A stretch of DNA of 64,000 nt, taken from Candidatus Doudnabacteria bacterium RIFCSPHIGHO2_02_FULL_42_25. Its GTDB lineage: Bacteria; Patescibacteriota; Doudnabacteria; UBA920; O2-02-FULL-48-8. Position 1 is the stretch's first letter; every line of letters starts with the position of its first letter. The DNA lies in assembly GCA_001777665.1 (NCBI GenBank), contig MFEQ01000006.1, forward strand, positions 278,300-342,299, read 5' to 3'. A program made the translations under genes and the position numbers. The notes below the pieces were generated by a model. That model had not been told where the DNA came from. It saw only the letters and a program-made list of their open reading frames with translations, and did not search any database. This document shows, piece by piece, positions 1,450 to 49,628 of the stretch.

Positions 1450-2136
1450 TTAAAAATTATATGCTGGTCTGGAAGTAAAAAATTTAAATTCAGTTAATGG
1501 CAGGGCTCGGACAAAGACTTTTCCGATGATATCTTTTTCCGGTAAAACGCCCCAGTCCCTAGAATCTGAAGATGCAAGCCTGTTATCGCCCATTACAAAG
1601 TATTCGCCAGCTCCAAGAGTTAGAATCTTACTCCCACCGAGTAATACTGTATCTTGCTCATAAGTCATGCTTTGGTTGGGTAGATATTTTTCATCGAGTG
1701 CAACTCCGTCGGGGTGTTCATCGTTATAAATGATTACCTTGCCATTCTGCAACTGAAGTTTTTCACCAGGTAAGACGATTATTCGCTTGATAAAAAATTG
1801 GTTTTCGTCTTTCGGGTAACGCATAACGATGACATCACCGCGTTTGGGGTCTCCAAAGTTGTAGGATAATTCATCTATAATCAAATACTCACCATCTTGG
1901 AAATTCGGGACCATGGACGATCCAGAGACGATAAAGGGCTGGAATACAAAATAACGAATCGGGATAATAATTACAAGGGCAACCAATACAATTTTCAGAA
2001 AATCCCAAATTAATAAGGCTGTGGCAGTAAAACCACCAAAGAAATTTCGATTTTTAGATGTTTTTTCTGTTTGATTGTCTGAATTTTGTTGAGTTGTCAT
2101 AAATTTATCTGGTGGATCCGGATGGATTTGAACCAT
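1450..2136 (-). CDS. lepB: signal peptidase I (S26 family)
   Basis: N-terminal TM segment, an 'SGSSMVPNF' Ser box, the 'GDNRLASSDSRDWG' box and 'IIGKVFVRALP' are all present in the translation. Confidence 0.85.
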   Translation of the reverse strand: MVQIHPDPPDKFMTTQQNSDNQTEKTSKNRNFFGGFTATALLIWDFLKIVLVALVIIIPIRYFVFQPFIVSGSSMVPNFQDGEYLIIDELSYNFGDPKRGDVIVMRYPKDENQFFIKRIIVLPGEKLQLQNGKVIIYNDEHPDGVALDEKYLPNQSMTYEQDTVLLGGSKILTLGAGEYFVMGDNRLASSDSRDWGVLPEKDIIGKVFVRALPLTEFKFFTSRPAYNF

Positions 2137-2164
2137 CGGCCTTTTGGATGTGAACCGAACGCTC

Positions 2165-2289
2165 CCCGCCTGCCACGCCTAATTAAATTTCTTGGTGGAC
2201 GATAGTGGATTCGAACCACTGACCTCGTCGATGTGAACGACGCACTCTAACCAGCTGAGCTAATCGTCCAAGATGGCATGGCGGGCAGG
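2165..2289 (-). repeat. palindromic-element arms CCTGCCCGCCATGCC / GGCGTGGCAGGCGGG flanking a complete tRNA-Val, inserted in the D-loop of the outer tRNA
   Basis: Read on the minus strand, the arms are the same 15-nt pair found in-frame in topA, uvrA and uvrC. Here the 'loop' between them is a whole tRNA gene. Confidence 0.7.
2194..2269 (-). tRNA. tRNA-Val (anticodon CAC)
   Basis: 76-nt cloverleaf GGACGAT-TA-GCTCAGCTGGTTAGAGT-G-CGTCG-TTCACAT-CGACG-AGGTC-AGTGG-TTCGAAT-CCACT-ATCGTCC-A. CCA follows in the genomic sequence. Confidence 0.85.
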
Positions 2290-2314
2290 TAACCCCTGAG
2301 CTACGGATCCAAAC

Positions 2315-2554
2315 TTAGATGCGTCCTTTTAAAAATCTTCGGCCAAAACCGGTTTTAAAATACTTTTCTCGTTTAATAGCATTCTCTTTGCTCAAACAGG
2401 CCTCGTAATATACTAATTCAAACGGGATTCTAGCCTTTGTTGCTTCGACTAAACCTTTATTATGCTTATCTACTCGTTCTTGCAAATCAACAGTCCAGCC
2501 TATATAAAGCTTTAAATCTTTAAGACTTTTTAGTACATAAGTATAGTAAAACAT
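2315..2554 (-). CDS. GIY-YIG nuclease family protein
   Basis: 79 aa. The 'YVLKS…LYIGWTVDLQERVDKHNKG' block is the GIY-YIG catalytic motif. The gene lies directly beside the IR-flanked tRNA insertion. Confidence 0.75.
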   Translation of the reverse strand: MFYYTYVLKSLKDLKLYIGWTVDLQERVDKHNKGLVEATKARIPFELVYYEACLSKENAIKREKYFKTGFGRRFLKGRI

Positions 2555-2567
2555 AACGCTCTAACCA

Positions 2568-2634
2568 GCTGCCCGCCCGCCATCGCAAGCCTGACACTTA
2601 CGCTTTATAACTTGCTCAGGCGTTGCGGGCGGGA
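2568..2634. repeat. intergenic GC-rich palindromic element, long variant, copy A
   Basis: CTGCCCGCCCGCC…GCAAGCC…GGCTTGC-like…GCGGGCGGG. It shares terminal arms with the 51-bp in-frame elements. Confidence 0.7.
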
Positions 2635-2704
2635 GCTAACCGCCCACTGCATTGATTTAACGACTAGTCTTTACAGCTTAGCAGAGACCCCGCATTGAGA
2701 TCAA

Positions 2705-2766
2705 CCTGCCCGCCTTCGCAAGCCTGACACAAATGCTTAAGGCTTGCTCAGAGCGTTGCAGGCGGG
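2705..2766. repeat. intergenic GC-rich palindromic element, long variant, copy B
   Basis: CCTGCCCGCCTTCGCAAGCCTGACAC…GGCTTGCTCAGAGCGTTGCAGGCGGG. It has nested inverted repeats and the same terminal arms as the in-frame copies. Confidence 0.7.
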
Positions 2767-2808
2767 TACTGATTTCGAGTATAATTACAAAGCGAATGTA
2801 AAAAACTG

Positions 2809-4299
2809 ATGAACTATATGAACGACTTTCCTGAACTTCAACAACAATACGCCCCCTCACACCCCAAACGCCATCGTCGTCGATGGAAATGGGTGGTTTT
2901 AATTCTGATCATTCTCGGGATAGCAGGAGGGGTCGCTTTCAAATACCTAACTCAAGCAAATCAAATTTTTACGGGCGACAAAAATATCTTTGCCCGGATC
3001 GGAAATTTGCTCCTAAGCCCGGATAAGGAATTGATTGGAGAGTCGAATGGTCAAATCAATATTCTTTTGATGGGAATCGGAGGCCCCGGACACGAGGGAG
3101 CGCTTCTCACTGACACCATGCTCGTTGCGAACATCAATATACAGACCAACGAAGTGGTGCTCACCAATATTCCTCGAGACTTTATGGTGGATCTCCCGAA
3201 ATATCGGTTACAAAAAATTAATGCAGCTTATGCGTATGCCGAGCGAGATAATCCTGGGACTGGAGGAGAAGCTGCAATCGATGAAATCGAAGCCGTAACT
3301 GGACTTGAGATCCCCTACTACGCTGTGATTGACTTCAAAGGGTTTGTGAAAGGAGTGGATGATGTGGGCGGGCTGGATATTACGATTGACCGCACCTTTA
3401 CTGATGCTTTCTATCCTGATTACAAAAATGGTTATCTCGCCCCAGTGACTTTTACTAAAGGGCCGGAACACATGAATGGCGAACGGGCCTTGATTTTTGC
3501 CCGTTCCAGAAAAGGTAATAATAATGAAGGCTCGGATTTTGCCCGCAGCGAACGACAGAAAAAAATTCTGGTCGCCTTCAAAGAAAAAGTTTTTGCTTTA
3601 AAATTAAATGACCTCAAAACATTAAATAATCTCCTCGGGGCTTTTACTGATAACTTTCGAACTAATATGGAACCTCATGAGCTAAAAAGGCTCACCGATC
3701 TGGGTAGTAAAATCCAAGAACAATCAGTCTATTCATTTTCGCTCGAACCTGATGGGGAATTAGTTTGCTCGGCTCTAATTGATTTAGCCACTGGGAAGCC
3801 ACCAGTGCCGATCGCTGTCCCGCCAACGCCTACACCTCCGCCAGCTGGCGGACCAACTCCAACCCCCAGCCCGTCTCCATCGCCAACGCCTACACCTGAA
3901 GAAGAACCAGAACTAGACAACCCATCGACGACAGCCTACGTCGTCATCCCGTGTGTGGGCAAAACTCTAGCTGACATCCATACCCATCTCAAAGATTCTA
4001 TTTATTTCGCCAAACTCAAAAAAGAATCAGCAATTGTTGAGATACAAAATTCTACAGGCAAAACTGGATTGGCTAACTCACTTTTCGGCACCCTGACCAA
4101 CCTCGGGTTTGAGATTAAATTCACTTCTTTCACGGGTAAAGTCCCGCTCGAGCAGTCAATTATCTATGACAACTCCCATGGGGGCAAGCCCAACACGCTA
4201 GAATATTTAAATTCAAATTATAAGCTAACTATCTCCGACGTTAACTACACCGGCTCTACAGCTGATTTTGTGATAATATTAGGGAAGGATGCTCTCTAA
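2809..4299 (+). CDS. LytR-CpsA-Psr (LCP) family cell-envelope transferase with Pro/Thr-rich linker and C-terminal domain
   Basis: N-terminal TM segment, then an LCP core (GQINILLMGIGG…LTDTMLVANI…IPRD…INAAYA…). A PT-rich linker contains an in-frame PPAGG palindrome. Confidence 0.8.
   Translation: MNYMNDFPELQQQYAPSHPKRHRRRWKWVVLILIILGIAGGVAFKYLTQANQIFTGDKNIFARIGNLLLSPDKELIGESNGQINILLMGIGGPGHEGALLTDTMLVANINIQTNEVVLTNIPRDFMVDLPKYRLQKINAAYAYAERDNPGTGGEAAIDEIEAVTGLEIPYYAVIDFKGFVKGVDDVGGLDITIDRTFTDAFYPDYKNGYLAPVTFTKGPEHMNGERALIFARSRKGNNNEGSDFARSERQKKILVAFKEKVFALKLNDLKTLNNLLGAFTDNFRTNMEPHELKRLTDLGSKIQEQSVYSFSLEPDGELVCSALIDLATGKPPVPIAVPPTPTPPPAGGPTPTPSPSPSPTPTPEEEPELDNPSTTAYVVIPCVGKTLADIHTHLKDSIYFAKLKKESAIVEIQNSTGKTGLANSLFGTLTNLGFEIKFTSFTGKVPLEQSIIYDNSHGGKPNTLEYLNSNYKLTISDVNYTGSTADFVIILGKDAL
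3838..3851. repeat. 14-bp perfect palindrome CCGCCAGCTGGCGG, in-frame, encoding PPAGG
   Basis: Exact palindrome containing a PvuII site, located inside the LCP linker. Confidence 0.8.
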
Positions 4300-6239: not shown

Positions 6240-6860
6240 GCTAGACGGCGACTTACATCGCCGGCGGGTAGTACGGCCGACCGTTGACGAGGCGTTGCGG
6301 CACTTTTTTTTGTGTCGCTACATCGCGCCGACCGTCAGTATTGTTCTTTTCACGTTGGTTGCGTCGGTAGAGCACATCCGACGCGCTACCATTGGGACGG
6401 ACAGCTTTGTCCTCCCGACTACTGGACATGTTGTTGCTCACTCGATCCTCCGAAACGACGACGATAAGGTTAAGAACGTAGCCCCTCTGGGATCGGGACC
6501 GATTCTTTCATGCCTGTCTGGGGGCAGGCGAGGTTGGGGGTCTTACGAGGCTAGGAGTTGCTTCCTTCCGGTCGCACCATGTCGAGGTCGAAGAATGTCC
6601 TTGCTGCATCCAGTGACGTGGTTCTGGTTGTCACTGGTGCCAGCTGATCATCCACCGCGATGCCGGTGAAGATACGCTGCGCCATGGGCGGTATCCCAAG
6701 ATAAACCGGGGTTTCCGCTTTGCGAACAAGCCTTGGTGGACCTAAGTTTTCTTTCATCCCCAGACTCCGATATTCAATTGTCCTATTGTTCTAGTCGACG
6801 TACCACCCAACATGGGTAGTTTCGCGCTCGCTTTCCCTCCTTAGGGTTTGCGATCTTTAG
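6240..6860. other. GC-rich (~55%) non-coding block, probably structured RNA gene(s) of untyped class
   Basis: ~620 bp with no credible ORF; the six-frame ORFs here are R/C-rich nonsense. GC content is well above the ~40% background. It contains many local hairpins and a CCGGAAGGAAGCA 13-mer on the minus strand. Confidence 0.4.
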
Positions 6861-6910
6861 TTCAAAAAAATTTTGAAACAAAAACCGAAAACCCAATTCC
6901 ATATATCCCA

Positions 6911-7018
6911 GAAGCGAGGTACTTGGTAAAATTAACTCGCGCAGGACGACGGTCCGAGCGCGTAGGCCAAAAATTCAGCAGAATTTTATGGCCGGTAATT
7001 TTACCAACGTACCGAGCG
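6911..7018 (+). ncRNA. ~110-nt conserved structured element, copy 1, upstream of dprA
   Basis: AAGCGAGG…GTAAAATTA.CTCGCGCAGGACGACGGTCCGAGCGCGTAGGCCAAAAATTCAGCAGAATTTTATGGCCGGTAATTTTAC…CCGAGC. Compensatory changes are seen relative to copies 2 and 3. Confidence 0.55.
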
Positions 7019-7205
7019 TAATATTCTTGACCCCACCTCCGAGTGTTGGACTAGTCCGGAAAACCGTACCGGCCCAAACTTGAGGTTACTAGGAAACAAT
7101 AGGAGGGATGCTGCTTCCATTCACCACTCATGAGGTAGGATGAAGAATACTACTGGTTGTATTGTTAATGATACGAATATATAATAATAGCACAAAATCA
7201 CCCTC

Positions 7206-8309: not shown

Positions 8310-9396
8310 TCGTTTTACGTCAGCGCCACGCGTATCGGTTAACGTTAGACGATACGCGCAGCGCAGCCTTATAACGCTCACCGTGATTCTTCTCGTTCTT
8401 TTAATAGTTGTCTTTCTAAGTCCTAAAACTGCCCTAGGGCCAAAAACTGATAACCAAAAACCAAACCAACTTCCAAAACCTCCAACCACTACCCTGTTTT
8501 TTGCGGGTGACATCATGCTTTCGCGCAATGTCGCAGGCAAAATTTATACAGCCAACGACGTTCATCTCCCTTACTTAAACGTCAGTGAGAAAATTTTATC
8601 CGCTGATATTGCTTTTGCGAATCTAGAATCTCCGTTTAATAGCCAAGGAGATCATTCAGTCCAGAACAGTTTGATATTCAACGCTGATCCGAAATTCGCG
8701 GATGGACTATCAAATGCTGGTTTTGATATTTTATCTACAGCCAACAACCATTCGTTTGATCAGGGTAAATCCGCAATCGAATTTACGAGGGTCACCCTCG
8801 TAAATAATAATCTCGTGTCAGTTGGCACAGGAGTAGACTGTCACAGCGGAAAAATTATAGAAAAAAATCAGATCAAATTTGGATTTTTGGCTTACTCTTA
8901 TGCCGCACACAATGATGGTGGTAAAATTCCAGATCCTCTGGTTTGCGACTGGAATGATGAACAACAAATTGTTGCTGATATTCAGGCCATGCGGCCACAG
9001 GTCGATTTTTTGATCGTTTCCGCGCATATAGGCACTGAATACAAGCGAGTTCCAGACGAAGACAATGCATTGCGAGCGCGCAAAACCATAGATGCCGGAG
9101 CGGATTTATTTATCGGCCACCATCCACACTGGATCCAAACGATTGAGCAATATCAAGGTAAATGGATTTTCTATTCTTTGGGCAATTTTGTATTCGATCA
9201 AATGTGGAGCCAAGATACAAAAGAAGGTTTGACTATTACTGTCACACTTGAAGAAAAAGCGATCAAAAAAATCGAACTTAATCCGGTAGTTATCGAAAAT
9301 TATTGTTGTCCCATATGGGCTGATGACATGGAAAGTTTGGCCATCTTAAAGAAGATTGGCTTGACAACTAGAGTTTTATTAGGTGAAAATAAGTGA
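8293..9396 (+). CDS. CapA/PgsA-family metallophosphatase-like protein (poly-gamma-glutamate capsule synthesis family)
   Basis: FFAGDIM…FANLESP…ANNHSFD…SAHIGTEY…GHHPHWIQ…GNFVFDQ motifs are present. The exact start is uncertain because a palindrome lies at the 5' end. Confidence 0.75.
   Translation: MLKFVSRFTSAPRVSVNVRRYAQRSLITLTVILLVLLIVVFLSPKTALGPKTDNQKPNQLPKPPTTTLFFAGDIMLSRNVAGKIYTANDVHLPYLNVSEKILSADIAFANLESPFNSQGDHSVQNSLIFNADPKFADGLSNAGFDILSTANNHSFDQGKSAIEFTRVTLVNNNLVSVGTGVDCHSGKIIEKNQIKFGFLAYSYAAHNDGGKIPDPLVCDWNDEQQIVADIQAMRPQVDFLIVSAHIGTEYKRVPDEDNALRARKTIDAGADLFIGHHPHWIQTIEQYQGKWIFYSLGNFVFDQMWSQDTKEGLTITVTLEEKAIKKIELNPVVIENYCCPIWADDMESLAILKKIGLTTRVLLGENK
8321..8364. repeat. palindromic element, family 3, copy 1
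   Basis: CAGCGCCACGCGTATCG-GTTAACGTTAGA-CGATACGCGCAGCGCAG. A near-identical copy lies at 15165-15210. Confidence 0.7.
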
Positions 9397-9399
9397 GTT

Positions 9400-11709
9400 A
9401 TGGCAAAATCACTAGTCATAGTAGAGAGTCCGACTAAGGCAAAAACGATTTCCAAATTCCTCGACGGAAAGTATAAAGTCGAGGCGTCTTTTGGTCATAT
9501 CCGCGATTTGCCGACCAGTAAAATGGGAATCGACATCGAACATGATTTCGAACCTACATATGTCATTCCACCGAAAGCAAAAAAGAAAATTGCTGAACTA
9601 AAAAAATTGGCGAAAGATGCCGAAGAAATAATTCTCGCGACTGACGAAGACCGCGAAGGTGAAGCCATTGCCTGGCATTTGGTAGAGGCTTTGGGCTTAA
9701 ATAAAACTCATAAACCAGAAGCTAAAATCAAACGCATCGTTTTCCACGAAATTACGAGGTCGGCTATAGAAACCGCGATGGAACATCCTCGGGAGCTGGA
9801 TATAGATTTAGTCGACGCCCAGCAAGCACGCCGAGTACTCGACCGGTTGGTGGGTTATGAACTCTCCCCTTTCTTATGGAAGAAGGTTAAGAGAGGCTTG
9901 TCAGCCGGACGTGTCCAATCTGTCGCTGTGAGATTGGTCGTGGATCGCGAACGCGAAATCCAAAAATTTACTCCAGAAGAATATTGGAACATTATTGCGA
10001 CTTTTCATAAAGATAATAATTTCCTAGGTAAACTCAACAAAATCGACGGCAAAACTTTGGATAAACTCGGGATAAAAAACGAGACTCAAGCCAAGAAAAT
10101 TTTAGCTGATCTCGCCAACCGACCAGCCGAGGTCACAGAGGTTACGAAAAAAGAAGTCCGACGCAATCCAGCTGCTCCTTTTATTACATCTTCACTCCAG
10201 CAAGAAGCAGCTCGGAAGCTCGGTTTCAGTGCCAAACAGACCATGATGTACGCCCAGCAATTATATGAAGGTGTGGAACTTGGCGACGGCAGTGCGACAG
10301 GTTTAATTACCTATATGAGAACGGATTCAGTTAATCTTTCTGAGTTTGCGCTCGATTCAGCCCACAAAGCGATCATGGAACGATATGGTAAAGACTATTT
10401 ACTCGATACTCCTCGCAAATATGCGTCCCGATCGAAAAACGCCCAGGAAGCACATGAAGCCATCCGACCAACTGATTTACAAAGAGATCCCGAAAGTCTC
10501 AAAGACCACCTCGATCGCAACCAACATCGACTTTATGATTTGATTTGGAAACGAACAATCGCTAGCCAAATGCCAGAAGCTGTATTTGATCAAACCGCGG
10601 TTGATATCGAGATTAAAGGTGATAAAAAATACACCTTCCGTGCCAATGGCCAAGTCATCAAATTCGATGGATTCATGAAAGTTTACCTAGAAGGCACTGA
10701 TGAAGAAGAGCCTACTGAAGAAGACCTGCCCGCCATGCCTCGTGGTGGGCCAGATGACAAGGCGTGGCAGGCGGGCGGGTTGCTACCTGAACTCAAGGTT
10801 GGCGATAAACCAAAAGTCGTTAAAATTTTACCGAAACAATCTTTCACCCAACCTCTACCTCGCTACACTGATGCCACTCTGATCAAAGCTTTAGAAGAAC
10901 AAGGGATCGGCCGTCCCTCGACTTATGCGCCAACCCTGACAACAATTCAAGAACGCGATTACGTCAATAAAATTGATAAAAAATACCATCCGACTGAAAT
11001 GGGTTTTATCGTTAATGATATTTTAGTTGAACATTTCCCAAAAATTGTAGATCTCCAATTCACAGCGCTTATGGAAGATGAATTGGATGGCATAGCCACG
11101 GGTGAAAAGGCCTGGGTGCCGGTGATCAAAGAATTTTATGGCCCCTTCCATGAAAATTTGAAAACTAAAGAAAAAGAAGTCGAACGCCATGTCGAAATTT
11201 TGGATGAAAAATGTCCTCTTTCGGGTCATCCCCTACAGATTAAGTTTGGCCGGTTTGGAAAATTTGTGGCATGTACTAATTATCCAGAATGTAAATTCAC
11301 CCGTCCGATGCCAGAAGAACAAAAATTGATCGAAGAAAATAGCGGGGAAATTTGCGATGTTTGCGGTCGTCCTATGATCGTAAAGTTTGGTCGGTTTGGT
11401 GCTTTCCTCGGTTGCAGTGGTTATCCGGATTGTAAAAATATCAAAAAGATTCAAAAAGGTACTGGTGTCACTTGCCCATCCTGCGGCGAAGGCGAATTGG
11501 TAGAACGACGCAGCAAACGTGGAATTTTCTATTCTTGTTCCAAATATCCGAAATGTAAATTCCTGATGAATGGTAAACCGACTGGTGAAAAATGCCCGCA
11601 ATCGGGCGATCTATTGATGGAAACTAAAAACGGTACTCTGAAGTGCAGCAACAAAGAATGTGACTATGAACGCGAAGCTGCCCCCGCTGAAGTTGAAAAA
11701 GCAAAATAA
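9400..11709 (+). CDS. topA: DNA topoisomerase I with three C-terminal zinc ribbons
   Basis: Toprim N-terminus (LVIVESPTKAKTI), an active-site Tyr region and repeated CxxC…CxxC zinc-ribbon modules are present. Confidence 0.9.
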   Translation: MAKSLVIVESPTKAKTISKFLDGKYKVEASFGHIRDLPTSKMGIDIEHDFEPTYVIPPKAKKKIAELKKLAKDAEEIILATDEDREGEAIAWHLVEALGLNKTHKPEAKIKRIVFHEITRSAIETAMEHPRELDIDLVDAQQARRVLDRLVGYELSPFLWKKVKRGLSAGRVQSVAVRLVVDREREIQKFTPEEYWNIIATFHKDNNFLGKLNKIDGKTLDKLGIKNETQAKKILADLANRPAEVTEVTKKEVRRNPAAPFITSSLQQEAARKLGFSAKQTMMYAQQLYEGVELGDGSATGLITYMRTDSVNLSEFALDSAHKAIMERYGKDYLLDTPRKYASRSKNAQEAHEAIRPTDLQRDPESLKDHLDRNQHRLYDLIWKRTIASQMPEAVFDQTAVDIEIKGDKKYTFRANGQVIKFDGFMKVYLEGTDEEEPTEEDLPAMPRGGPDDKAWQAGGLLPELKVGDKPKVVKILPKQSFTQPLPRYTDATLIKALEEQGIGRPSTYAPTLTTIQERDYVNKIDKKYHPTEMGFIVNDILVEHFPKIVDLQFTALMEDELDGIATGEKAWVPVIKEFYGPFHENLKTKEKEVERHVEILDEKCPLSGHPLQIKFGRFGKFVACTNYPECKFTRPMPEEQKLIEENSGEICDVCGRPMIVKFGRFGAFLGCSGYPDCKNIKKIQKGTGVTCPSCGEGELVERRSKRGIFYSCSKYPKCKFLMNGKPTGEKCPQSGDLLMETKNGTLKCSNKECDYEREAAPAEVEKAK
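10725..10775 (+). repeat. 51-bp palindromic element inserted in-frame in topA
   Basis: CCTGCCCGCCATGCC-N21-GGCGTGGCAGGCGGG. It encodes LPAMPRGGPDDKAWQAGG. Confidence 0.85.
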
Positions 11710-12702: not shown

Positions 12703-13766
12703 ATATTTTTGTTAATTGCTGAAGTTATAATAGCACTTTCTACGATTTCTTCCACTTCCTTTGCATTCTGGGTCTCCATTAATTTCACTCGCAATTCTTT
12801 GGCCCCGTCGAATCCGTTGACATAGGCTTTGTAATGTTTCTTCATGGTCTCGAAACTTTTGATCCCGGCAAATTTTTGCTCAAATAGTTTCGTATGCTCG
12901 ATCATGACTTTCAAACGTTCGGACAAAGAAATTTGTGGCTTGCGACTAAACAGCCACGGGTTGCCGAAAATTCCACGGCCAATCATGATCCCATCACATC
13001 CGGTTTCTGCAACTTTCTGTTCTGCTTCAGCTAAATTTGCGACATCCCCATTGCCTAAGATTAAAGTCTCTTTAGATATCTGATCTCTGATATCTGTTAT
13101 CTGTCTCATAACTTCCCAGTGCGCAGGGACTTTGGACATTTCTTTTACAGTACGCAGGTGCACAGTCAGTACAGAAATCTCGGTTTTCAATATTGTCGGC
13201 AACCACGTATCAATTTCAATTTTGTTAAAACCAATTCTGGTTTTGACCGAAACCGGGAGCTCCCCTGCTCCTTCTTTCGTCGCATGAATAATCTCTTGTG
13301 CCAGAGCTGGTGTTTTGATTAAAGCCGAGCAGGCTTTTTGATTGAGAATTTTTTTGACTGGACAACCCATGTTTATATCCACGCCATCAAACCCTAATTC
13401 TTTGATTAATTTAGCAGCTTTATAAAAATTTTCAGGATTGGATCCAAAAATCTGGGCGACTATCGGATGTTCGTTTTCTCCATACCAAAAATCAACCAGT
13501 AATCGACTCAATCCTTCGGAGTTGAGCCCATCTACAGATACGAATTCGGTCCAGAACACATCTGGCTTGCCGTATTTAGCAATCAATTCCCGAAACGCGG
13601 CATCGGTCACATCTGCCAGCGGAGCCAAAACCATTATCGGCCTGCCCGCAACGCCAGCAAGCTGGCTTGCGTGGCGGGCGGGCTTTTTCAATTTTTCCCA
13701 AAATCCTAAATTCATAAATGCTTCCCATCCCAGCGAAAGCTGGGATCCACTACTTAAATTACACAA
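12699..13766 (-). CDS. dus: tRNA-dihydrouridine synthase (TIM-barrel FMN enzyme)
   Basis: LAPLADVTD…VDINMGCPVKK…SVKTRIG motifs are present. The likely true start is the internal Met near 13717. An in-frame palindrome lies in the N-terminus. Confidence 0.8.
   Translation of the reverse strand: MCNLSSGSQLSLGWEAFMNLGFWEKLKKPARHASQLAGVAGRPIMVLAPLADVTDAAFRELIAKYGKPDVFWTEFVSVDGLNSEGLSRLLVDFWYGENEHPIVAQIFGSNPENFYKAAKLIKELGFDGVDINMGCPVKKILNQKACSALIKTPALAQEIIHATKEGAGELPVSVKTRIGFNKIEIDTWLPTILKTEISVLTVHLRTVKEMSKVPAHWEVMRQITDIRDQISKETLILGNGDVANLAEAEQKVAETGCDGIMIGRGIFGNPWLFSRKPQISLSERLKVMIEHTKLFEQKFAGIKSFETMKKHYKAYVNGFDGAKELRVKLMETQNAKEVEEIVESAIITSAINKNI
13640..13684 (-). repeat. ~45-bp palindromic element variant in-frame in the dus N-terminus
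   Basis: GCCTGCCCGCAACGCC-AGCAAGCTGGCTTGC-GTGGCGGGCGGGC. It encodes KKPARHASQLAGVAGRP immediately ahead of the conserved LAPLADVTD. Confidence 0.65.
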
Positions 13767-13859: not shown

Positions 13860-15173
13860 TCAATCATTTTTCATGAAGATCCTGTTTTCGGTAGTCCAAT
13901 AAGAAATCGCTTTGGTGAATGGTAAAATAGATAGAAAATATCTCAAATCCGCGGCTTTGCGGATGAGCCAACCCGAAAATCCGGACATAATCACACTCGG
14001 TGTATAAAAAATAGCAAATTTTCCAGTCACAGGAATAATAAATCGTAACGCTACTGGATGATAACTAAGCAGCGGCTTGTCTTTGATCATGCGGTAAATA
14101 TTTTTGGCGACATATTTGCCTTGATTGATAGCTTCTTGTGCAGTTTGTGGCACTGGCTTTTTTGTAACTGGATCCACTATTCCGGTATTGTCCCCGGCGA
14201 GAAATACGCGTGGGTATTGCGATAAATTCAAAGCAGTCGCCACGATGGTCCGATCTTTTTTATCTCGTTCGAGTTCTCCGCCAGCTGGCAGATCTAGCGG
14301 CAACCGGATGGACCTGACTCCACCCGTCCAAATCAGCAAATCACAATCCACCCGTTCTTTCATATTTAGAATCACGTGATCCTTCCCAGTGTCAGTAATC
14401 AGTGATGAGAATCTAGTTTCAATTCCCATAGTAGTAAGTCGACTGCCGATTATTGCCGAAATTTTCTCCGACAGTCCGGATAAATAACTCGTCCCCCCTT
14501 CGACCATCACAACCTTGTAATTATTTAAATCTTTTTGATGGTGTGCACATTCATGCTTGAGCAGATTGTGTACTTCCCCGGCAAATTCAGTTCCAGCAAA
14601 ACCAGCACCACCGATAATAATGCAGCCACTGTCCTTTTTCGCAACTAAATCTTCGATACGATTCCGAATCATAATCGCATCTTCTAGACTTTTCAGTGTA
14701 AATCCGTACTTATCCAAATTCGGAATGTCATAATAATCGGGAACACTTCCCATAGCGATCACCAAATAATCAAAAGCTAAGATGCGCGAGTCAGTTATTA
14801 CTTTGCCGTTTATTAAATCAATCCGATCAACATAACCTTTGAAAACTTTTACTCTTGTTCGTTTAAAAATGTCATCGAAAGAAATCGCCACGGTATGCTT
14901 AACTTTTTTTGCTTCGACTAATCGGTGTTCTGTCGTGGCTGCTTCATAGAGAGCGGAATTAAAAGTTTGATAATCCTTTCGGTCAACTAAAATAATTTCG
15001 TATTCTAAATCATCGTGGAGGTAATTGTTCAAATCCAAAGCCGCTCGGACTCCGGCGAATCCGCCACCAAGAATGATAATATGTTTTTTCTCTTCTGGAA
15101 TTTTTGATTTCATGAATAAAAACAGCCCCTTTATTATACCATAAGCTGCGTTAATAGTTTTTCGGCAGCGCAA
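13860..15173 (-). CDS. type II NADH dehydrogenase-like FAD/NAD(P)-binding oxidoreductase
   Basis: Two GxGxxG dinucleotide folds are present (IIILGGGFAGV and IIIGGAGFAGTEFAGE). The C-terminal extension contains a near-copy of the PPAGG palindrome. Confidence 0.75.
   Translation of the reverse strand: MRCRKTINAAYGIIKGLFLFMKSKIPEEKKHIIILGGGFAGVRAALDLNNYLHDDLEYEIILVDRKDYQTFNSALYEAATTEHRLVEAKKVKHTVAISFDDIFKRTRVKVFKGYVDRIDLINGKVITDSRILAFDYLVIAMGSVPDYYDIPNLDKYGFTLKSLEDAIMIRNRIEDLVAKKDSGCIIIGGAGFAGTEFAGEVHNLLKHECAHHQKDLNNYKVVMVEGGTSYLSGLSEKISAIIGSRLTTMGIETRFSSLITDTGKDHVILNMKERVDCDLLIWTGGVRSIRLPLDLPAGGELERDKKDRTIVATALNLSQYPRVFLAGDNTGIVDPVTKKPVPQTAQEAINQGKYVAKNIYRMIKDKPLLSYHPVALRFIIPVTGKFAIFYTPSVIMSGFSGWLIRKAADLRYFLSILPFTKAISYWTTENRIFMKND
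14278..14290. repeat. near-palindrome CCGCCAGCTGGCA in-frame, encoding LPAGG
   Basis: 13/14 match to CCGCCAGCTGGCGG. Confidence 0.5.
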
Positions 15174-15210
15174 CGCGTATCGGTTAACGTTAGACGATAC
15201 GCGCGGCGCC
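15165..15210. repeat. palindromic element, family 3, copy 2 (intergenic)
   Basis: CAGCGCAACGCGTATCGGTTAACGTTAGACGATACGCGCGGCGC. Confidence 0.7.
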
Positions 15211-15221
15211 GACGAATAACT

Positions 15222-15938
15222 CTAGACGATGTCTTTTTTAGTTATGAATTTATGCTTGCCTAGGGGTAAATCACCCAACTTTACTTTTCCAACCCGGATT
15301 CGCTTGAGATTGCGAATCGTATAACCAAAAGCCGCAAACATTCTACGGACTTGGCGATTCCAGCCTTCGTGAATTGTGATATAGATAGTTGTACCGTTTG
15401 CTCGAACTTTGGCTGGTGCTGTTTTCTTGCCATCCAATTCCATGCCTTCCCGAAGTTTCGTGATCCGTCCTTCTGATAACTCTTTATTCAAAACCACCTC
15501 GTACTCTTTTTCGTGTTCTTTCGACGGATGTGCCAAGTCCTGAGTTAATTCTCCGTCATTAGTAAACAATAATAATCCTTCGGTATTGAAATCCAGGCGC
15601 CCGATGGGCCAGACCACTGATCGAAGATCTGCAGGTAATAAATCAAAAACAGTTTTGCGTTTTCGGGGATCATTCCGCGTAGTCAAATATCGCTTCGGTT
15701 TGTTCATCATGAGATAGATTAAACTTTTAACAGTTAACTTTTTACCATTAACCTCTACACGGTCTTTGGCAATGTCGGCTTTGGTTCCCAGCTCACGAAC
15801 TACTTGGCCATTCACTTTGACTTTGCCAGCCAAAATCAACTCCTCGGCATGACGCCTGGAAGCAATTCCTGCTTGGGAGATTATCTTTTGTAAACGCTCT
15901 TGCATGAGGTTTAATGCTATAATTAATTTATTAACCAT
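15222..15938 (-). CDS. pseudouridine synthase, RsuA/RluB family (S4 domain plus catalytic domain)
   Basis: An S4 domain at the N-terminus and the catalytic-Asp motif GRLDFNTEGLLLFTNDG are present. Confidence 0.85.
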   Translation of the reverse strand: MVNKLIIALNLMQERLQKIISQAGIASRRHAEELILAGKVKVNGQVVRELGTKADIAKDRVEVNGKKLTVKSLIYLMMNKPKRYLTTRNDPRKRKTVFDLLPADLRSVVWPIGRLDFNTEGLLLFTNDGELTQDLAHPSKEHEKEYEVVLNKELSEGRITKLREGMELDGKKTAPAKVRANGTTIYITIHEGWNRQVRRMFAAFGYTIRNLKRIRVGKVKLGDLPLGKHKFITKKDIV

Positions 15939-40479: not shown

Positions 40480-43380
40480 TTAGACTCGAACCGGTTTCAG
40501 GGCTTTGGCCAAGTATTGGCCGGTGTAACTTTTTTTGACTTTCGCGACGTCTTCTGGGGTGCCAACTGCCACGACCTGTCCGCCCTTATTCCCACCTTCA
40601 GGACCGAGATCAATAACCCAGTCCGCCGATTTGATGACATCGAGGTTGTGTTCAATGACTAGAACTGTGTTCCCTTTCTCGACTAAACGATTGAGTACGC
40701 CGAGTAAGCGCTTGACGTCATCAAAGTGCAACCCAGTCGTTGGTTCATCTAAAATGTATAGTGTGCGGCCAGTGGAAGCTCTGGATAATTCAGAAGAGAG
40801 TTTGATACGTTGCGCTTCTCCGCCAGAGAGTGTGGTAGCTTGCTGACCCAAATGCATGTAACCGAGACCGACTAAAGATAGCGTTTCTAATTTACGAGCA
40901 ATTAATGGCACGTTGCGGAAAAAAACATGTGCTTCATCCACTGTCATTTCCAGGACATCAGAAATATTTTTACCTTTGTAGTGGATGTCGAGAGCTTCTT
41001 TATTATAGCGTTTACCTTTACACTCTTCACAAGCGACATAGACATCTGGCAAGAAATGCATTTCGATTTTGATTACCCCATCGCCGCCACAGACTTCACA
41101 ACGGCCACCTTTAACATTGAAACTAAATCGGCCGGCTTTGTAACCACGCATGCGAGCTTCCGGTACAGATGCAAACAGATCGCGAATATAGGTGAAGACG
41201 CCGGTATAAGTCGCTGGGTTGGAGCGTGGTGTCCGGCCAATCGGTGACTGGTCAATATTAATAACTTTGTCGATGTTGTCGATGCCGAGGATTTTTTTAT
41301 GTTCACCTGGTGATTCTTTGGCATTGTAGAAATAAGCAGAAAGGGATTTGGCTAAAATCTCATTGAGCAATGTTGATTTGCCACTGCCCGAAACTCCAGT
41401 CAGACAAACAAATTTACCCAAAGGGATTTCGACATCAATGTTTTTAAGGTTGTGTTCAGTCGCACCTACAACTTTGATAGTTTTACCATTCCCTTTCTTG
41501 CGTGCCATAGGTACCGAGACTGATTCAGCACCAGACATGTACTTGCCAGTGAGAGAATTTTTATCTTTGGCTACTGTATTAGGTGTGCCTTCAGCAACTA
41601 ACTGCCCGCCGTGTTTGCCAGCACCAGGCCCGATATCTACGACCCAGTCCGAGGCCCAGATGGTTTCTTCGTCGTGTTCAACCACGATGACAGTGTTTCC
41701 GAGATCGCGCAAATTTTTCAAAGTTCGAAGTAATCGATCGTTATCGCGTTGGTGAAGCCCGATCGATGGTTCGTCTAAGATATAGAGCACGCCGGTCAAT
41801 CCTGAACCGATTTGGGTGGCCAGACGAATGCGCTGGGCTTCTCCGCCAGAGAGTGTATCCGCAGATCGATCGAGAGTCAGATAATTCAAACCGACATCTT
41901 GTAAAAATTTCAAACGAGAAACAATTTCTTTGAAGATCTGATGGGCGATTTTCATGTCTTTCTCGGACATTTTCTTCGGCAGGGATTCTGTAAACTCAAT
42001 CGCTTCGTCAATTGAGAAGTTGGAAACATCGACAATCGATTTCGCATCGATAGTGACTGCCAAAAATTCTGGTTTCAATCTCTTCCCTTTACAGGTCGGA
42101 CATTTCTGCACCCGCATATACTGTTCAATCTCACCACGCATATAGTCTGATTCGGTTTCTTTGTATTTGCGCATTAAATTATGGACCACACCCTCAAACG
42201 GACCGAAGTGGCCATAACCAGATTCATCCTGAAATGAAATTTTCGTGTCTCCAGTACCGTACAAAACTGCATCCAGTGCTTTCTTCGGTAAATCTCGAAC
42301 TGGAACGTGGATAGAAAACCCGTAAACTTTCGAAACTGCTTCGAGAACTCGGGAATACCAAGACATTCTGGAGGTAGTTTTGCTCCATGGTCGGATCGCA
42401 CCTTCGGCGAGAGTCAATCTTTTATTTGGGATGACTAATTCAGCCTCGATTTCCAGTCTAGTGCCAAGTCCGGTACAATCCGGACATGCGCCGTGTGGAG
42501 AGTTAAAAGAGAAGTTCCTTGGGTTCAATTCAGGTAGATTAGTATGGCCCTCCGGACAGGCAAAATTAGATGAGAGCAGTATCTCTCCCGCCTGCCACGC
42601 CTCTATCTCTTGCTTTGACCGAGGCATGGCGGGCAGGTCTTTCTCATCTTTGGCAATTATCACGGAATCGTTCCCCAAATCCAGTGCTGTTTCGAGAGAA
42701 TCAGCAATTCTGGCTCGATCTCCTGAATCCAAAGATATCCGATCCACCACAATATCTATAGTGTGTTTTTTCTTTTTGTCGACATTGAGCTGCAACGCCT
42801 CGGACAAATCCATAATCGTGCCGTCAAATCGGATTCGCTGGTAGCCGGATTTTTTGGCTTCTTCCAGTAAATGTTTGTGCTCGCCTTTTTGGTCACGAAC
42901 CAGTGGCGCCATGATCACGATCTTGGTGGATTCTGGCCAACTGACGATCTGGTCTACCATTTGAGTGACACTTTGTCCGGTAATTTTTTTACCACAAACC
43001 GGACAGTGCGGAGTGCCGACACGAGCGTAGAGTAATCTCAAATAATCATAAATTTCGGTAACAGTTCCGACAGTCGAGCGCGGATTGTGTGATGCAGATT
43101 TCTGGTCGATAGAAATCGCTGGTGAGAGTCCTTCTATCTTGTCGACATCAGGTTTATCCATAAGTCCTAAAAATTGTCTGGCGTAAGCCGAGAGGGATTC
43201 AACATAGCGTCGCTGACCTTCCGCGTATATGGTATCGAATGCCAAAGAGGATTTGCCGCTACCTGAAAGACCCGTGATGACCACGAGTTTGTTTCTGGGG
43301 ATATCGACATTGATGTTTTTTAAGTTATGGACCCGAGCTCCCCTTATTACTATCTTATCTGACATTGCGTATTCTCCCAT
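40480..43380 (-). CDS. uvrA: excinuclease ABC subunit A
   Basis: Two ABC ATPase modules with zinc fingers are present. The likely true start is the internal Met at 43365. Confidence 0.95.
42587..42637 (-). repeat. 51-bp palindromic element inserted in-frame in uvrA
   Basis: On the coding strand: CCTGCCCGCCATGCC-N21-GGCGTGGCAGGCGGG. It encodes [18 protein letters not shown]. Confidence 0.85.
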
Positions 43381-44820: not shown

Positions 44821-46641
44821 ATGTCGAAACAGCTAGAACAAAAGATTAAAGACCTCCCCCAGAAACCCGGTGTCTATGTATTCAAAGATGCCAAAGGGTT
44901 GGTTTTGTACGTCGGGAAAGCGATCAAACTCAAAAACCGAGTTAGTTCTTATTTCAAACGGGACGGTGATGATGGTCGCGGACCTCGGATCCAACAAATG
45001 ATTTCTCTAATTCGTGACCTCAACTACACGGTCACAGATAATGAAACTGAAAGTTTGATCCTGGAGAAAAATTTCATTTCACAACTCAAACCCAAATACA
45101 ACGTTGATCTCCGTGATGACAAAAATTATTTATTTATTAAAATAAATATCAAAGATGAAATCCCGACGATTGGCTATGAACGAAAACTGATGGATCGAAG
45201 TAGCCGTTATTTCGGTCCTTATACTTCAGGACTTGCCATCAAAGACACACTTCGGATGCTCCGAAATATTTTTCCTTACTGTTCCAACAAAAAAATCGGT
45301 AATAAACCTTGCTTCTTTTATCACATCGGTAAATGTCCGGGTGTTTGCTTTGGCAAAATAAGTACCCAAGAATACCGCGACAATTACATCAAAAAAATTA
45401 TCCAATTTCTGGAAGGCCGCCAATCTCAAGTTCTGAAAGATTTACAAAAACAGATGCGATCTTTTGCGTCCCATAAACAATTTGAAAAAGCAGCGAAGGT
45501 TCGCAACCAAATTTTTGCCCTGAACCGAGTGCTCGAACGACAAAAATTGGTTTACCCGAAAAAACTCGACCAAGATGTGTTCTCTGTTTATACAGACCTG
45601 CCCGCCATGCCTCGGGTAAAGCAATCCGACAAGGCGTGGCAGGCGGGTGGTGTCGCATCCATCAATTTATTCATGATCCGAGAAGGAAAACTCATCCAAA
45701 AAGAAAACTTCATCATGGAAAATACGAAACAAGTCCCGGTTGATGAAATTTTGCAAAGTTTTCTCGAAAGATATTATCTAGAGGCTTCAAGCATACCCAA
45801 AGAAGTATTACTTCCAGCCCAAATTATCCCTGATGAACTATATCCGGTATTTATCGGTCGTCGATTTCCCAAATTTACAGTACCAGTCCAGGGTCAAAGA
45901 CTACAGCTTCTGAAATTAGGCCAAGAAAATGCCAAACAATATCTGGAAAGCACCACAGATAAACATTTGTTAGAAGAAGCTCGATTGCTCGCCTCGCTCA
46001 AAGAATTGCAACGAGTTTTGGATCTACCGAATTTGCCAGGTCGCATCGAAGCGTACGACATTTCGAATATCCAAGGCACCAACCCTGTCGGCTCGATGGT
46101 TGTGTTTGACTTCGCCCGACCGAAAAAATCTGATTATCGTAAATTTAAAATTAATAAAAAACAAACTCCTGATGACTTCGCTATGATGCGCGAAATGCTC
46201 GAACGACGATTTCGCAACGATTGGCCTCTTCCCGATCTGATCCTGATCGATGGCGGGAAGGGTCAATTGAATGCAGCCCTTTCAGTGCTTCAGGTTTCAG
46301 GTTCCAGGTTTCAGGTCATTGGCCTCGCCAAACGCTTAGAAGAAATTTTTACTCCCCTTAATACTTCCCCCTTGATACTTCCTACTAACTCCCAAGCACT
46401 TTATCTCTTACAACGCATCCGCGATGAAGCTCATCGCTTCGGCGTGAAATACCATAGACATTTGCGATCGAAGGGATCTCTCTCTTCTGTGCTCGATCAA
46501 ATCTCCGGCATCGGTCCGGCCAAGAAAAAAACATTGCTCCAAAAATTTGGCTCTGCTGCCAAAGTTCGTTCTGCTAGTCTTACAGAACTTGCCGCGATCG
46601 TTGGGTCTAAAACCGCCGAGAAGATCAAGGCATCTCTTTGA
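44821..46641 (+). CDS. uvrC: excinuclease ABC subunit C
   Basis: GIY-YIG N-terminus (GVYVFKD…LYVGKA), UvrBC-interacting region and C-terminal HhH. The true start is at 44821, six nt after a TATAAT box; the N-terminal extension in the ORF track is spurious. Confidence 0.9.
   Translation: MSKQLEQKIKDLPQKPGVYVFKDAKGLVLYVGKAIKLKNRVSSYFKRDGDDGRGPRIQQMISLIRDLNYTVTDNETESLILEKNFISQLKPKYNVDLRDDKNYLFIKINIKDEIPTIGYERKLMDRSSRYFGPYTSGLAIKDTLRMLRNIFPYCSNKKIGNKPCFFYHIGKCPGVCFGKISTQEYRDNYIKKIIQFLEGRQSQVLKDLQKQMRSFASHKQFEKAAKVRNQIFALNRVLERQKLVYPKKLDQDVFSVYTDLPAMPRVKQSDKAWQAGGVASINLFMIREGKLIQKENFIMENTKQVPVDEILQSFLERYYLEASSIPKEVLLPAQIIPDELYPVFIGRRFPKFTVPVQGQRLQLLKLGQENAKQYLESTTDKHLLEEARLLASLKELQRVLDLPNLPGRIEAYDISNIQGTNPVGSMVVFDFARPKKSDYRKFKINKKQTPDDFAMMREMLERRFRNDWPLPDLILIDGGKGQLNAALSVLQVSGSRFQVIGLAKRLEEIFTPLNTSPLILPTNSQALYLLQRIRDEAHRFGVKYHRHLRSKGSLSSVLDQISGIGPAKKKTLLQKFGSAAKVRSASLTELAAIVGSKTAEKIKASL
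45597..45647 (+). repeat. 51-bp palindromic element inserted in-frame in uvrC
   Basis: CCTGCCCGCCATGCC-TCGGGTAAAGCAATCCGACAA-GGCGTGGCAGGCGGG. It encodes LPAMPRVKQSDKAWQAGG. Confidence 0.85.
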
Positions 46642-49369: not shown

Positions 49370-49456
49370 GCTCGAGTGGTGGAACTGGCATACACGTACG
49401 CTTCAGGAGCGTATGACCGCAAGGTCGTGGGAGTTCAAATCTCCCCTCGAGCACCA
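49370..49456 (+). tRNA. tRNA-Leu (anticodon CAG), class II with long variable arm
   Basis: GCTCGAG…TACGC-TTCAGGA-GCGTA-(long variable arm)-GGAGTTCAAATCTCC-CCTCGAGC-A-CCA. Confidence 0.85.
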
Positions 49457-49486: not shown

Positions 49487-49558
49487 GTACGGAGCGCGCA
49501 CGCTTCAGGAGCGTGTGGGAGCAATCCCGTGAGAGTTCAAATCTCTCCGTACCCGCCA
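49487..49558 (+). other. truncated tRNA-Leu-like partial duplicate
   Basis: It lacks a D-arm. The anticodon arm CACGC-TTCAGGA-GCGTG is a copy of the tRNA-Leu arm. A variable arm and a T-arm are present. Confidence 0.4.
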
Positions 49559-49577
49559 AAATAATACATTTACCCAT

Positions 49578-49628
49578 CCCGGACTTGACCTGCCTGCCGG
49601 CAAGCAGGTCCGGGATCTTCTTTTTTTT
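49578..49628 (+). terminator. rho-independent terminator
   Basis: CCCGGACTTGACCTGC-CTGCC-GGCAAGCAGGTCCGGG followed by T8. Confidence 0.8.

Follow-up and report, generated by a model that had tools for sequence, protein, structure and literature searches.

The window analysed here comprises 64 kb out of the ~1-Mb genome of a tiny groundwater bacterium, Candidatus Doudnabacteria bacterium RIFCSPHIGHO2_02_FULL_42_25 (all positions are those of the window) and contains a tRNA-Val gene with a second, different tRNA-Val gene inside it, next to a gene for a small GIY-YIG nuclease. The outer tRNA-Val(CAC), 76 nt in length and located on the minus strand, consists of positions 2310-2290 and 2164-2110 and is interrupted by a 125-bp cassette (2165-2289), which is bounded by the arms of a GC-rich palindromic element (PE) and encloses a complete tRNA-Val(CAC). 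The insertion lies between nt 21 and 22 of the outer tRNA, at the boundary of D-loop and D-stem, a breakpoint common to ~50 metagenome contigs. The minus-strand order from 2310 is GGATCCGTAGCTCAGGGGTTA (2310-2290; outer 5' part, nt 1-21), the left cassette arm CCTGCCCGCCATGCC (2289-2275), the spacer ATCTT (2274-2270; 5' leader of the inner tRNA), the complete inner tRNA (2269-2193), its 3' flanking spacer AGAAATTTAATTA (2192-2180), the right cassette arm GGCGTGGCAGGCGGG (2179-2165) and GAGCGTTCGG...CGGATCCACCA (2164-2110; outer 3' part, nt 22-76 plus CCA). The two 15-bp arms pair at 14 of 15 positions, and 77 of the 125 bp of the insert are tRNA. The 51-nt PEs at 10725 and 45597 have right ends that match the right arm exactly, and the 3' spacer resembles the native tRNA-to-lepB spacer at sister loci. 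According to their first nucleotides, the outer tRNA is referred to as the GGATCCG type and the inner, presumably functional tRNA as the GGACGAT type.

In the unmodified sequence, ARAGORN and Rfam detected the inner tRNA-Val(CAC) alone (2193-2269), which forms a full cloverleaf and scored 66.1 bits against the Rfam RF00005 gathering threshold of 29; the unspliced outer 3' part by itself scored 27.1 bits with the Rfam tRNA model, below the gathering score of 29. After in-silico deletion of 2165-2289, ARAGORN called the outer tRNA, in which the acceptor stem (7 bp), D stem and T stem are perfect and the anticodon stem has a single C.A mismatch (A at 2145). In the predicted RNA fold (-77.5 kcal/mol, z=-3.6), the acceptor stem of the outer tRNA, a 15-bp helix between the arms and the cloverleaf of the inner tRNA are all retained.

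The stand-alone GIY-YIG nuclease gene (2315-2554, minus strand) occupies the 5' leader of the outer tRNA, with its stop codon 4 nt ahead of it. It encodes a UPF0213-like protein of 79 aa (Pfam PF01541, E=2.7e-14; PDB 1zg2, E=2.6e-6), which is a bare catalytic domain with the UPF0213 proteins 1zg2 and 1ywl as nearest solved relatives; it falls below every NCBIfam cut-off (TIGR01453, 20 bits vs a cut-off of 56). Upstream of its ATG, the minus strand carries the first 26 nt of a third tRNA-Val (GGGCGGT type), split into nt 1-12 (GGGCGGTTAGCT, 2645-2634) and nt 13-26 (CAGCTGGTTAGAGCG, 2571-2558; 2571-2555 including the TT before the ATG) by a 62-bp palindromic element, PE-B (2572-2633). A second 62-bp element, PE-A (2705-2766), abuts the -35 box of a conserved tRNA promoter on the minus strand (2704-2675), which consists of TTGATC (2704-2699), TG (2683-2682) and TAAGCT (2680-2675) with 18-nt spacing. 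This promoter was not detected by a sigma-70 consensus scan and was found through its conservation in the alignment with sister loci. No terminator was predicted within 1900-3000, and a single transcript from the tRNA promoter probably covers the nuclease mRNA, both outer halves and the inner tRNA. The single precursor would then contain the relic, PE-B, the GIY-YIG mRNA, the outer 5' half, the inner tRNA and the outer 3' half, from which RNase P and 3' processing would free the inner tRNA. The first-pass annotation had described a 76-nt tRNA(CAC) made of two halves around a 125-bp insert, an intact tRNA-Val(CAC) between repeat arms within it, an adjoining GIY-YIG endonuclease gene at 2315-2554 and two further palindromes; all of these were recovered by the analyses above, the palindromes being delimited at 2572-2633 and 2705-2766. 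It had overlooked the third tRNA relic, the match between the cassette arms and the ends of the 51-nt palindromes in topA, uvrC and uvrA, and the stem-breaking substitution of the outer tRNA.

The ~900-bp locus is identical base for base in three independent assemblies (the NCBI metagenome-assembled genome GCA_001780055.1 of Candidatus Doudnabacteria, an ENA MEGAHIT assembly and a JGI assembly), and a strain variant differs by one single-nucleotide polymorphism (SNP) in 2.5 kb. The nested structure is therefore not a misassembly.

A genome scan that made use of the adjacent HisRS gene yielded six close relatives. In four of them (L004-L007, HisRS 75-83% identical) the same promoter precedes one uninterrupted tRNA-Val(CAC) starting GGGCGGTTAGCTC, with lepB following ~10 nt on; neither a PE nor a GIY-YIG gene is present at this site in these four genomes. 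Their tRNA matches the fragment at 2634-2645 and 2558-2571 upstream of the nuclease gene, so that this fragment is a relic of the ancestral resident tRNA and the site held another tRNA ancestrally. In the fifth relative (L008) the resident tRNA is of the inner type of the window, as it is in L196 and L133. In the sixth (L009), nt 1-22 of a GGACGAT-type tRNA are followed by the left arm (CCTGTCCGCCGTAC) and then by a different intact tRNA-Val, the right arm and the 3' half being missing; breakpoint and arm are those of the window, and this copy is an unmistakable fossil.

The same gene order was found in a more distant member of the Doudnabacteria (L202), with lepB and HisRS 56-57% and the GIY-YIG protein 82% identical. 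In this genome the outer type of the window is present as a 5' relic with PE-B in its D-loop and a 3' relic (nt 38-76, after ...GGCGGG). The relics flank the GIY-YIG gene and a third, intact type of tRNA-Val (GGGCAAT...), and the invasion site is 37/38. Where the window has CCAAA, the relic of L202 has CCGAA, and a G at this place gives a perfect stem. Since L202 retains the G, the C.A mismatch of the window is derived and stem-breaking, as expected of an unconstrained copy. Altogether, at least six sequence types of tRNA-Val(CAC) occur at this one site (L174 included). The GIY-YIG gene and the outer tRNA type are shared with the distant L202 and absent from the close relatives L004-L007, i.e., their distribution is patchy at one locus, with flanking markers replaced.

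Viral contigs were scanned with the 15-mer junction GGTTACCTGYCCGCC, which gave 106 hits, none of them in a tRNA context and their number roughly in the chance range by a rough, uncomputed estimate. The junction pattern was then made longer for a metagenome scan (GCTCAG-N0-3-GGTTA joined to CCYGYCCGC), which returned 75 stretches and, after removal of duplicates and non-tRNA hits, ~51 distinct tRNA/PE junctions at nt 21/22. The design thus recurs with a fixed breakpoint. At 12 nested loci (the organism of the window included) a full tRNA lies between the two arms and shares the identity of the tRNA that it interrupts, namely Val/Val (CAC, GAC or TAC), Met/Met or Thr/Thr; the sole exception, L185 (outer GAT vs inner GAC), fits one C-to-T change in a copy undergoing decay. 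A second class has the left arm only, followed by an intact tRNA. In the simple-hairpin class (~20 loci) the tRNA relic is truncated at nt 26-50, with an intact tRNA of like kind 30-130 nt further on, and at least nine loci show a hairpin, a few tRNA nucleotides, a GIY-YIG open reading frame (ORF) and an intact tRNA, in this order. Nested tRNAs bounded by different inverted-repeat families occur at nt 16/17, 35/36 and 37/38, and three to five layers were observed in L164, L168 and L210.

At least four different outer tRNAs contain a GGGTTTG-type inner tRNA within the same arm family (CCCGCCCGCCTTGCTTCGCC...CAAGGCGAAGCGGGCGGG), which argues that the arm-tRNA-arm unit moves. The outer copies are either intact (window, L149, L170), otherwise perfect with additional hairpins (L162, L180, L143, L189), or chimeric or truncated (L134, L201, L174); this range looks like a decay series and not like a conserved functional class. 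The anticodon arms are mosaic between inner and outer copies. De novo duplication of the resident tRNA together with its flanks was considered as the source of the nested copies and rejected: the spacers inside the arms do not match the flanks outside in L143 and L201, and are loosely similar to them in the window.

Three further observations concern tRNA relics. In L137 (tRNA-His region), tRNA-His-like 3' ends are repeated in tandem every ~109 nt downstream of a PE-bearing relic, an array which may be a segmental amplification. In L139, L140 and L158 a PE-like hairpin is situated in the D-loop of a tRNA-Ile(GAT) relic beside intact tRNA-Ile and tRNA-Ala genes, as in rRNA operon spacers; these contigs look unlike Doudnabacteria, and the phenomenon may extend beyond that group. 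The window itself has a second locus where a relic adjoins an intact same-identity tRNA: a degenerate tRNA-Leu(CAG)-like sequence without D-loop (49487-49552, plus strand; 22.5 bits with the Rfam tRNA model, below threshold) lies 31 nt downstream of an intact tRNA-Leu(CAG) (49370-49456). It is followed by a hairpin with a T-run (49587-49625), probably a terminator, whose stem resembles the mini-hairpin CCTGCCTGCCGGCAGGCAGG in relic tRNAs of L162 and L168.

Homologues of the GIY-YIG protein form 1543 clusters at E<=1e-10, almost all of them 78-79 aa in length, and those that are named among the 120 matches listed are all from Patescibacteria. Seven homologues were drawn from the listed matches without regard to tRNAs. 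Six of the seven loci show a 5' tRNA relic with a PE, the ORF, a gap of 0-6 nt and an intact tRNA (Val, Gln, Thr at three loci, and His), often with a PE-bearing 3' relic after it. In the seventh (L206) the ORF lies exactly between PE arms (CCCGCCCGCATCGCCAGCGAGC ... GCTGGCTCGCGTGGCGGGCGGG). This element interrupts an epimerase gene behind codon 11, and a new copy of the gene's 5' end comes next. At least eight further protein clusters have the arm-encoded tails TRPHRQRA and LAGSRGGRVG; in P0053, P0069, P0020, P0034, P0082, P0096, P0058 and P0119 the GIY-YIG gene lies between arms that match a 42-bp PE of the window (13641-13682). This 42-bp PE corresponds to the two arms of the L206 element joined without the ORF, and the two are related as a miniature inverted-repeat transposable element (MITE) is to its autonomous element. 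GIY-YIG genes are thus tightly linked to PE-bearing tRNA relics and can sit between PE arms.

In L206 (701-1021), P0053 and P0069, an NAD-dependent epimerase gene is interrupted by the GIY-YIG element behind its codon 11 (MKILVTGGAGF in front of the element). In some variants the nuclease is fused in frame to the first 11 codons of the host gene and would use the translation start of the host. P0003 (134 aa) contains the motif YYEAC...KREKYFKTGF twice, like two GIY-YIG cassettes recombined in frame, which suggests recombination between element copies.

Within the 64 kb, the motif CCCGCCNGC occurs 12 times vs 0.84 times expected, and eight GC-rich PEs with inverted-repeat ends were delimited. 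Three elements of 51 bp have arms identical to those of the cassette and are inserted in frame in topA (10725-10775, plus strand, reading DLPAMPRGGPDDKAWQAGG), uvrC (45597-45647, plus strand) and uvrA (42587-42637, minus strand), all of which are DNA-handling genes. They have the same orientation and reading frame and encode DLPAMPR-x-AWQAG; compared with solved UvrA structures, the 17 residues encoded in uvrA are cleanly inserted. Since they lie in frame inside genes, the PEs are DNA elements which are kept in the mRNA and translated, and not self-removing RNA elements. Selection on the arms at the RNA level was rejected, because G.T and A.C arm pairs are balanced (50 vs 45 over 34 elements) and there is no strand bias; this balance fits a DNA palindrome rather than an RNA helix under selection. 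Elements of the PE-B type precede the GIY-YIG gene in L202, L204 and L210, and long (~80 bp) repeats flank some cassettes (L204, L210).

A second, unrelated palindromic repeat family (...CGCGTATCGGTTAAC|GTTAGACGATACGCG...) is represented in the window at 8311-8376, directly 3' of dprA, and at 15149-15228. Between pth and dprA, ~770 bp of GC-rich DNA (6250-7020) contain no long ORF and gave no Rfam match at E<=0.1; this region may be a divergent structured RNA or a decayed gene.

Taken together, the outer tRNA is probably a dead resident gene and the inner tRNA its replacement, at a site that homing-like PE/GIY-YIG elements have invaded repeatedly; the inner tRNA would be functional and the outer halves relics. 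On this reading the locus has been invaded at least twice. In a first invasion, a PE and GIY-YIG cassette with its own tRNA-Val (the present outer one) would have replaced the ancestral GGGCGGT-type tRNA, leaving nt 1-26 upstream, and in a second an arm-tRNA-arm cassette would have entered that outer tRNA. The PEs would be the ends, or non-autonomous derivatives, of elements that encode the 79-aa nuclease. The nuclease may break conserved target DNA or PE hairpins, and repair would copy the element from a donor with conserved tRNA sequence as homology arms. Persistence would require a replacement, either a whole tRNA within the arms or a new 5' part of the gene after the nuclease gene, since in an essential, single-copy target only elements that bring a replacement would persist. 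Horizontal movement is suggested by the GIY-YIG gene and outer tRNA type, which are common to a distant relative and absent from close ones, and by the mosaic anticodon arms.

The suggestion of the first-pass annotation that the outer tRNA was disrupted by an element with a tRNA cargo is supported by the uninterrupted tRNAs of the sister genomes and by the ~50 contigs which share the D-loop breakpoint and arm. Its description of a mobile cassette (nuclease plus palindromic ends) that targets a tRNA gene is supported as well, with one refinement: GIY-YIG homologues do occupy tRNA leaders next to PE-bearing relics, and in one subfamily the ORF lies between the arms, but in the window the nuclease gene is outside them.

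This position of the nuclease gene, outside the arms that enclose the tRNA, is the first of several points that weigh against the reading of repeated invasion; it makes the 125-bp cassette probably a non-autonomous relative of the nuclease element. The eight PE copies of the window show no consistent target-site duplication. Unlike characterised homing GIY-YIG enzymes, the 79-aa protein has no separate DNA-binding domain and linker, and it is a putative nuclease. The intact inner tRNA retains the insertion-site sequence in its D-loop, although on this reading it would have to escape being cut again. The outer halves are almost perfect (one mismatch), and the outer tRNAs of L162 and L180 are flawless despite several insertions, which fits very recent events but may also reflect function. 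The inner tRNA may be the sole tRNA-Val(CAC), the analysis having covered 64 kb of the genome.

Among the other explanations, an independent MITE combined with ordinary tRNA duplication is unlikely but fares best. In that case selfish palindromes comparable to those of Rickettsia would land wherever they are tolerated, spare tRNA copies from tandem duplication included, and the GIY-YIG gene would be an unrelated neighbour, which agrees with the PEs found in ORFs and intergenic DNA without a nuclease gene nearby, with the several different hairpins gathered by relics and with the PE-free tRNA-Leu relic beside tRNA-Leu at 49487-49552. Tandem duplication, however, cannot place a complete tRNA between the arms of one palindrome, a design seen 12 times and with the precise 21/22 breakpoint; moreover, inner and outer tRNAs are often of different lineages, and GIY-YIG genes are tied to PE-bearing tRNA relics in six of the seven unbiased samples and lie between PE arms in a subfamily.

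Exchange of cassettes by a recombinase encoded elsewhere, or by RecA alone, is distinctly unlikely. Here tRNA cassettes, circular or linear, would be taken up from the environment and would use the PEs as att-like sites or sites of homology, and the GIY-YIG protein would be a passenger or have another role, e.g., in RNA processing. The ~80-bp direct repeats (PE and flanking tRNA nucleotides) around the block of GIY-YIG gene and tRNA in L204 and L210 have the appearance of Campbell-type integration and would allow RecA-type recombination at PEs without the nuclease, and anticodon arms that are mosaic between inner and outer tRNAs point to gene conversion. Against this, no recombinase, integrase or transposase gene was found near any locus examined, and the nuclease gene is the one constant protein partner. 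An integrase-mediated tRNA island was rejected on the same absence of a recombinase among the neighbours, on the location of the break in the D-loop, and on the duplication of 5' rather than 3' parts.

That the outer tRNA is a working split or intron-containing tRNA is highly improbable; the first-pass annotation had offered split-tRNA processing of the transcript as its alternative. The arm helix would join the outer halves, in the manner of the complementary GC-rich leaders of Nanoarchaeum split tRNAs, RNase P/Z would excise the inner tRNA, and the halves would be ligated or act as two pieces, both tRNAs being functional. The predicted fold, with outer acceptor stem, arm helix and inner cloverleaf all kept, would be compatible with such processing, as would the nearly intact outer halves and the outer tRNAs elsewhere that are perfect despite two or three insertions. 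There is, however, no bulge-helix-bulge: both junctions lie at the base of one continuous 15-bp helix beside the D stem, with no 3-nt bulges. The inner identity is nearly always that of the outer tRNA (exception L185), which a functional outer tRNA would not need, and every case except the decayed L185 has an intact same-identity tRNA present or next to it. Many equivalent outer copies are truncated, chimeric or without a 3' half (L009, L138, L147, L176, L134, L174, L201), and the outer tRNA of the window differs from that of L202 by a change that breaks a stem. No RNA-strand bias is seen in the arms, and the same PEs are translated in frame in genes, hence not removed from RNA. A group I or II intron or another known RNA was also rejected: no Rfam hit beyond tRNAs was obtained in 2000-2900, no intron family matched in the window, even at E<=10 within 2000-2900, and the 125-bp insert has no group I core. 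An assembly or binning artefact that fused two tRNA-Val loci, with nothing in its favour but the oddity of the structure, is practically negligible in view of the three identical independent assemblies, the strain variant with one SNP in 2.5 kb and the dozens of analogous structures from unrelated samples.

Insertions of endonuclease genes that bring a replacement piece of the target gene are familiar from organelles, e.g., the hybrid atp6 gene of Allomyces mitochondria and the partial gene duplications beside endonuclease genes in fungal mitogenomes. There, as in the repeated invasion proposed here, an essential gene is hit, a foreign copy restores the displaced part and the resident fragment becomes a pseudogene; the epimerase gene of L206 shows the same. 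Those cases, however, are organellar, affect protein genes and have no palindromic termini, whereas whole-tRNA cargo and multi-layer nests occur here. The Rickettsia palindromic elements (RPEs) are characterised by in-frame insertion in protein genes, and the copies in topA, uvrC and uvrA behave in this way; RPEs differ in having no known partner enzyme and no cargo. Repetitive extragenic palindromes (REPs) have the tyrosine HUH transposase RAYT as partner, whereas the partner here is a GIY-YIG nuclease encoded between the same arms, which can also surround a tRNA gene. In archaea, split tRNAs and tRNAs with introns (the Nanoarchaeum halves with GC-rich complementary leaders, the D-loop introns of Thermoproteales) resemble the present case in their non-canonical breaks and GC-rich complementary flanks. 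They differ from it in the bulge-helix-bulge, which is lacking here, and in that the host is here a bacterium, an intact same-identity tRNA accompanies nearly every interrupted one and many of the broken copies are clearly dead.

The nearest precedent is SegB of phages T4 and T6, a GIY-YIG nuclease encoded among tRNA genes which cuts the tRNA-gene DNA of rivals, biases inheritance towards the tRNA region that carries it and is able to amplify a tRNA gene segmentally (PMC2330249). The association of segB with tRNA genes is widespread in phages (PMC13096335). Common to both is a GIY-YIG nuclease gene embedded among tRNA genes. SegB, however, belongs to phages and has ~220 aa, including a DNA-binding domain, whereas the protein of the window is a bare 79-aa domain, encoded on the chromosome in Patescibacteria and in the leader of one tRNA; unlike in SegB, palindromic elements lie alongside, and the target tRNA is physically split and replaced, with nested relics. 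In the same phylum, tRNA genes are also interrupted by mobile DNA in the form of group I introns, self-splicing ribozymes in the anticodon loop (PMC13011429); the terms hairpin, palindrome, nested and GIY-YIG do not occur in that paper. Full-text searches of the literature, the coverage of which was not exhaustive, gave no report from Patescibacteria of tRNAs nested in one another, palindromes in D-loops or cassettes of GIY-YIG gene and tRNA. The combination of a minimal nuclease, palindromic termini, whole-tRNA cargo, a fixed D-loop site and multi-layer nesting on the chromosome of Patescibacteria appears to be undescribed. Overall, this is selfish DNA of the homing-endonuclease or MITE type with an unusual, general anatomy.

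tRNA genes are usually taken as stable, vertically inherited markers, and here a single orthologous site within one candidate phylum has held at least six tRNA-Val(CAC) sequences, swapped by cassette invasion. For annotation this means that gene finders detect the innermost tRNA only, overlook the relics and may miscount the tRNA sets of Patescibacteria. Besides self-splicing (introns, inteins) and splitting into working pieces, a spare copy is a third route to tolerating an insertion in an essential gene. In-frame palindromic insertions of the Rickettsia type, for which to our knowledge no partner had been known before, are linked here to a partner enzyme. The minimal GIY-YIG proteins are a very large family (>1500 clusters) without assigned function, for which a testable role can now be offered. 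It is plausible, and put forward tentatively, that the stand-alone 79-aa GIY-YIG proteins are the nucleases of an unrecognised class of bacterial mobile elements with GC-rich palindromic ends, which would invade essential conserved genes (mainly tRNAs), carry a replacement copy and drive rapid horizontal turnover of tRNAs in Patescibacteria. If so, 'Russian-doll' tRNA fossils would be left behind, and if turnover of the tRNA sequence were itself advantageous (e.g., as an escape from tRNA-cleaving toxins or defence nucleases), a partial domestication of the elements would be conceivable.

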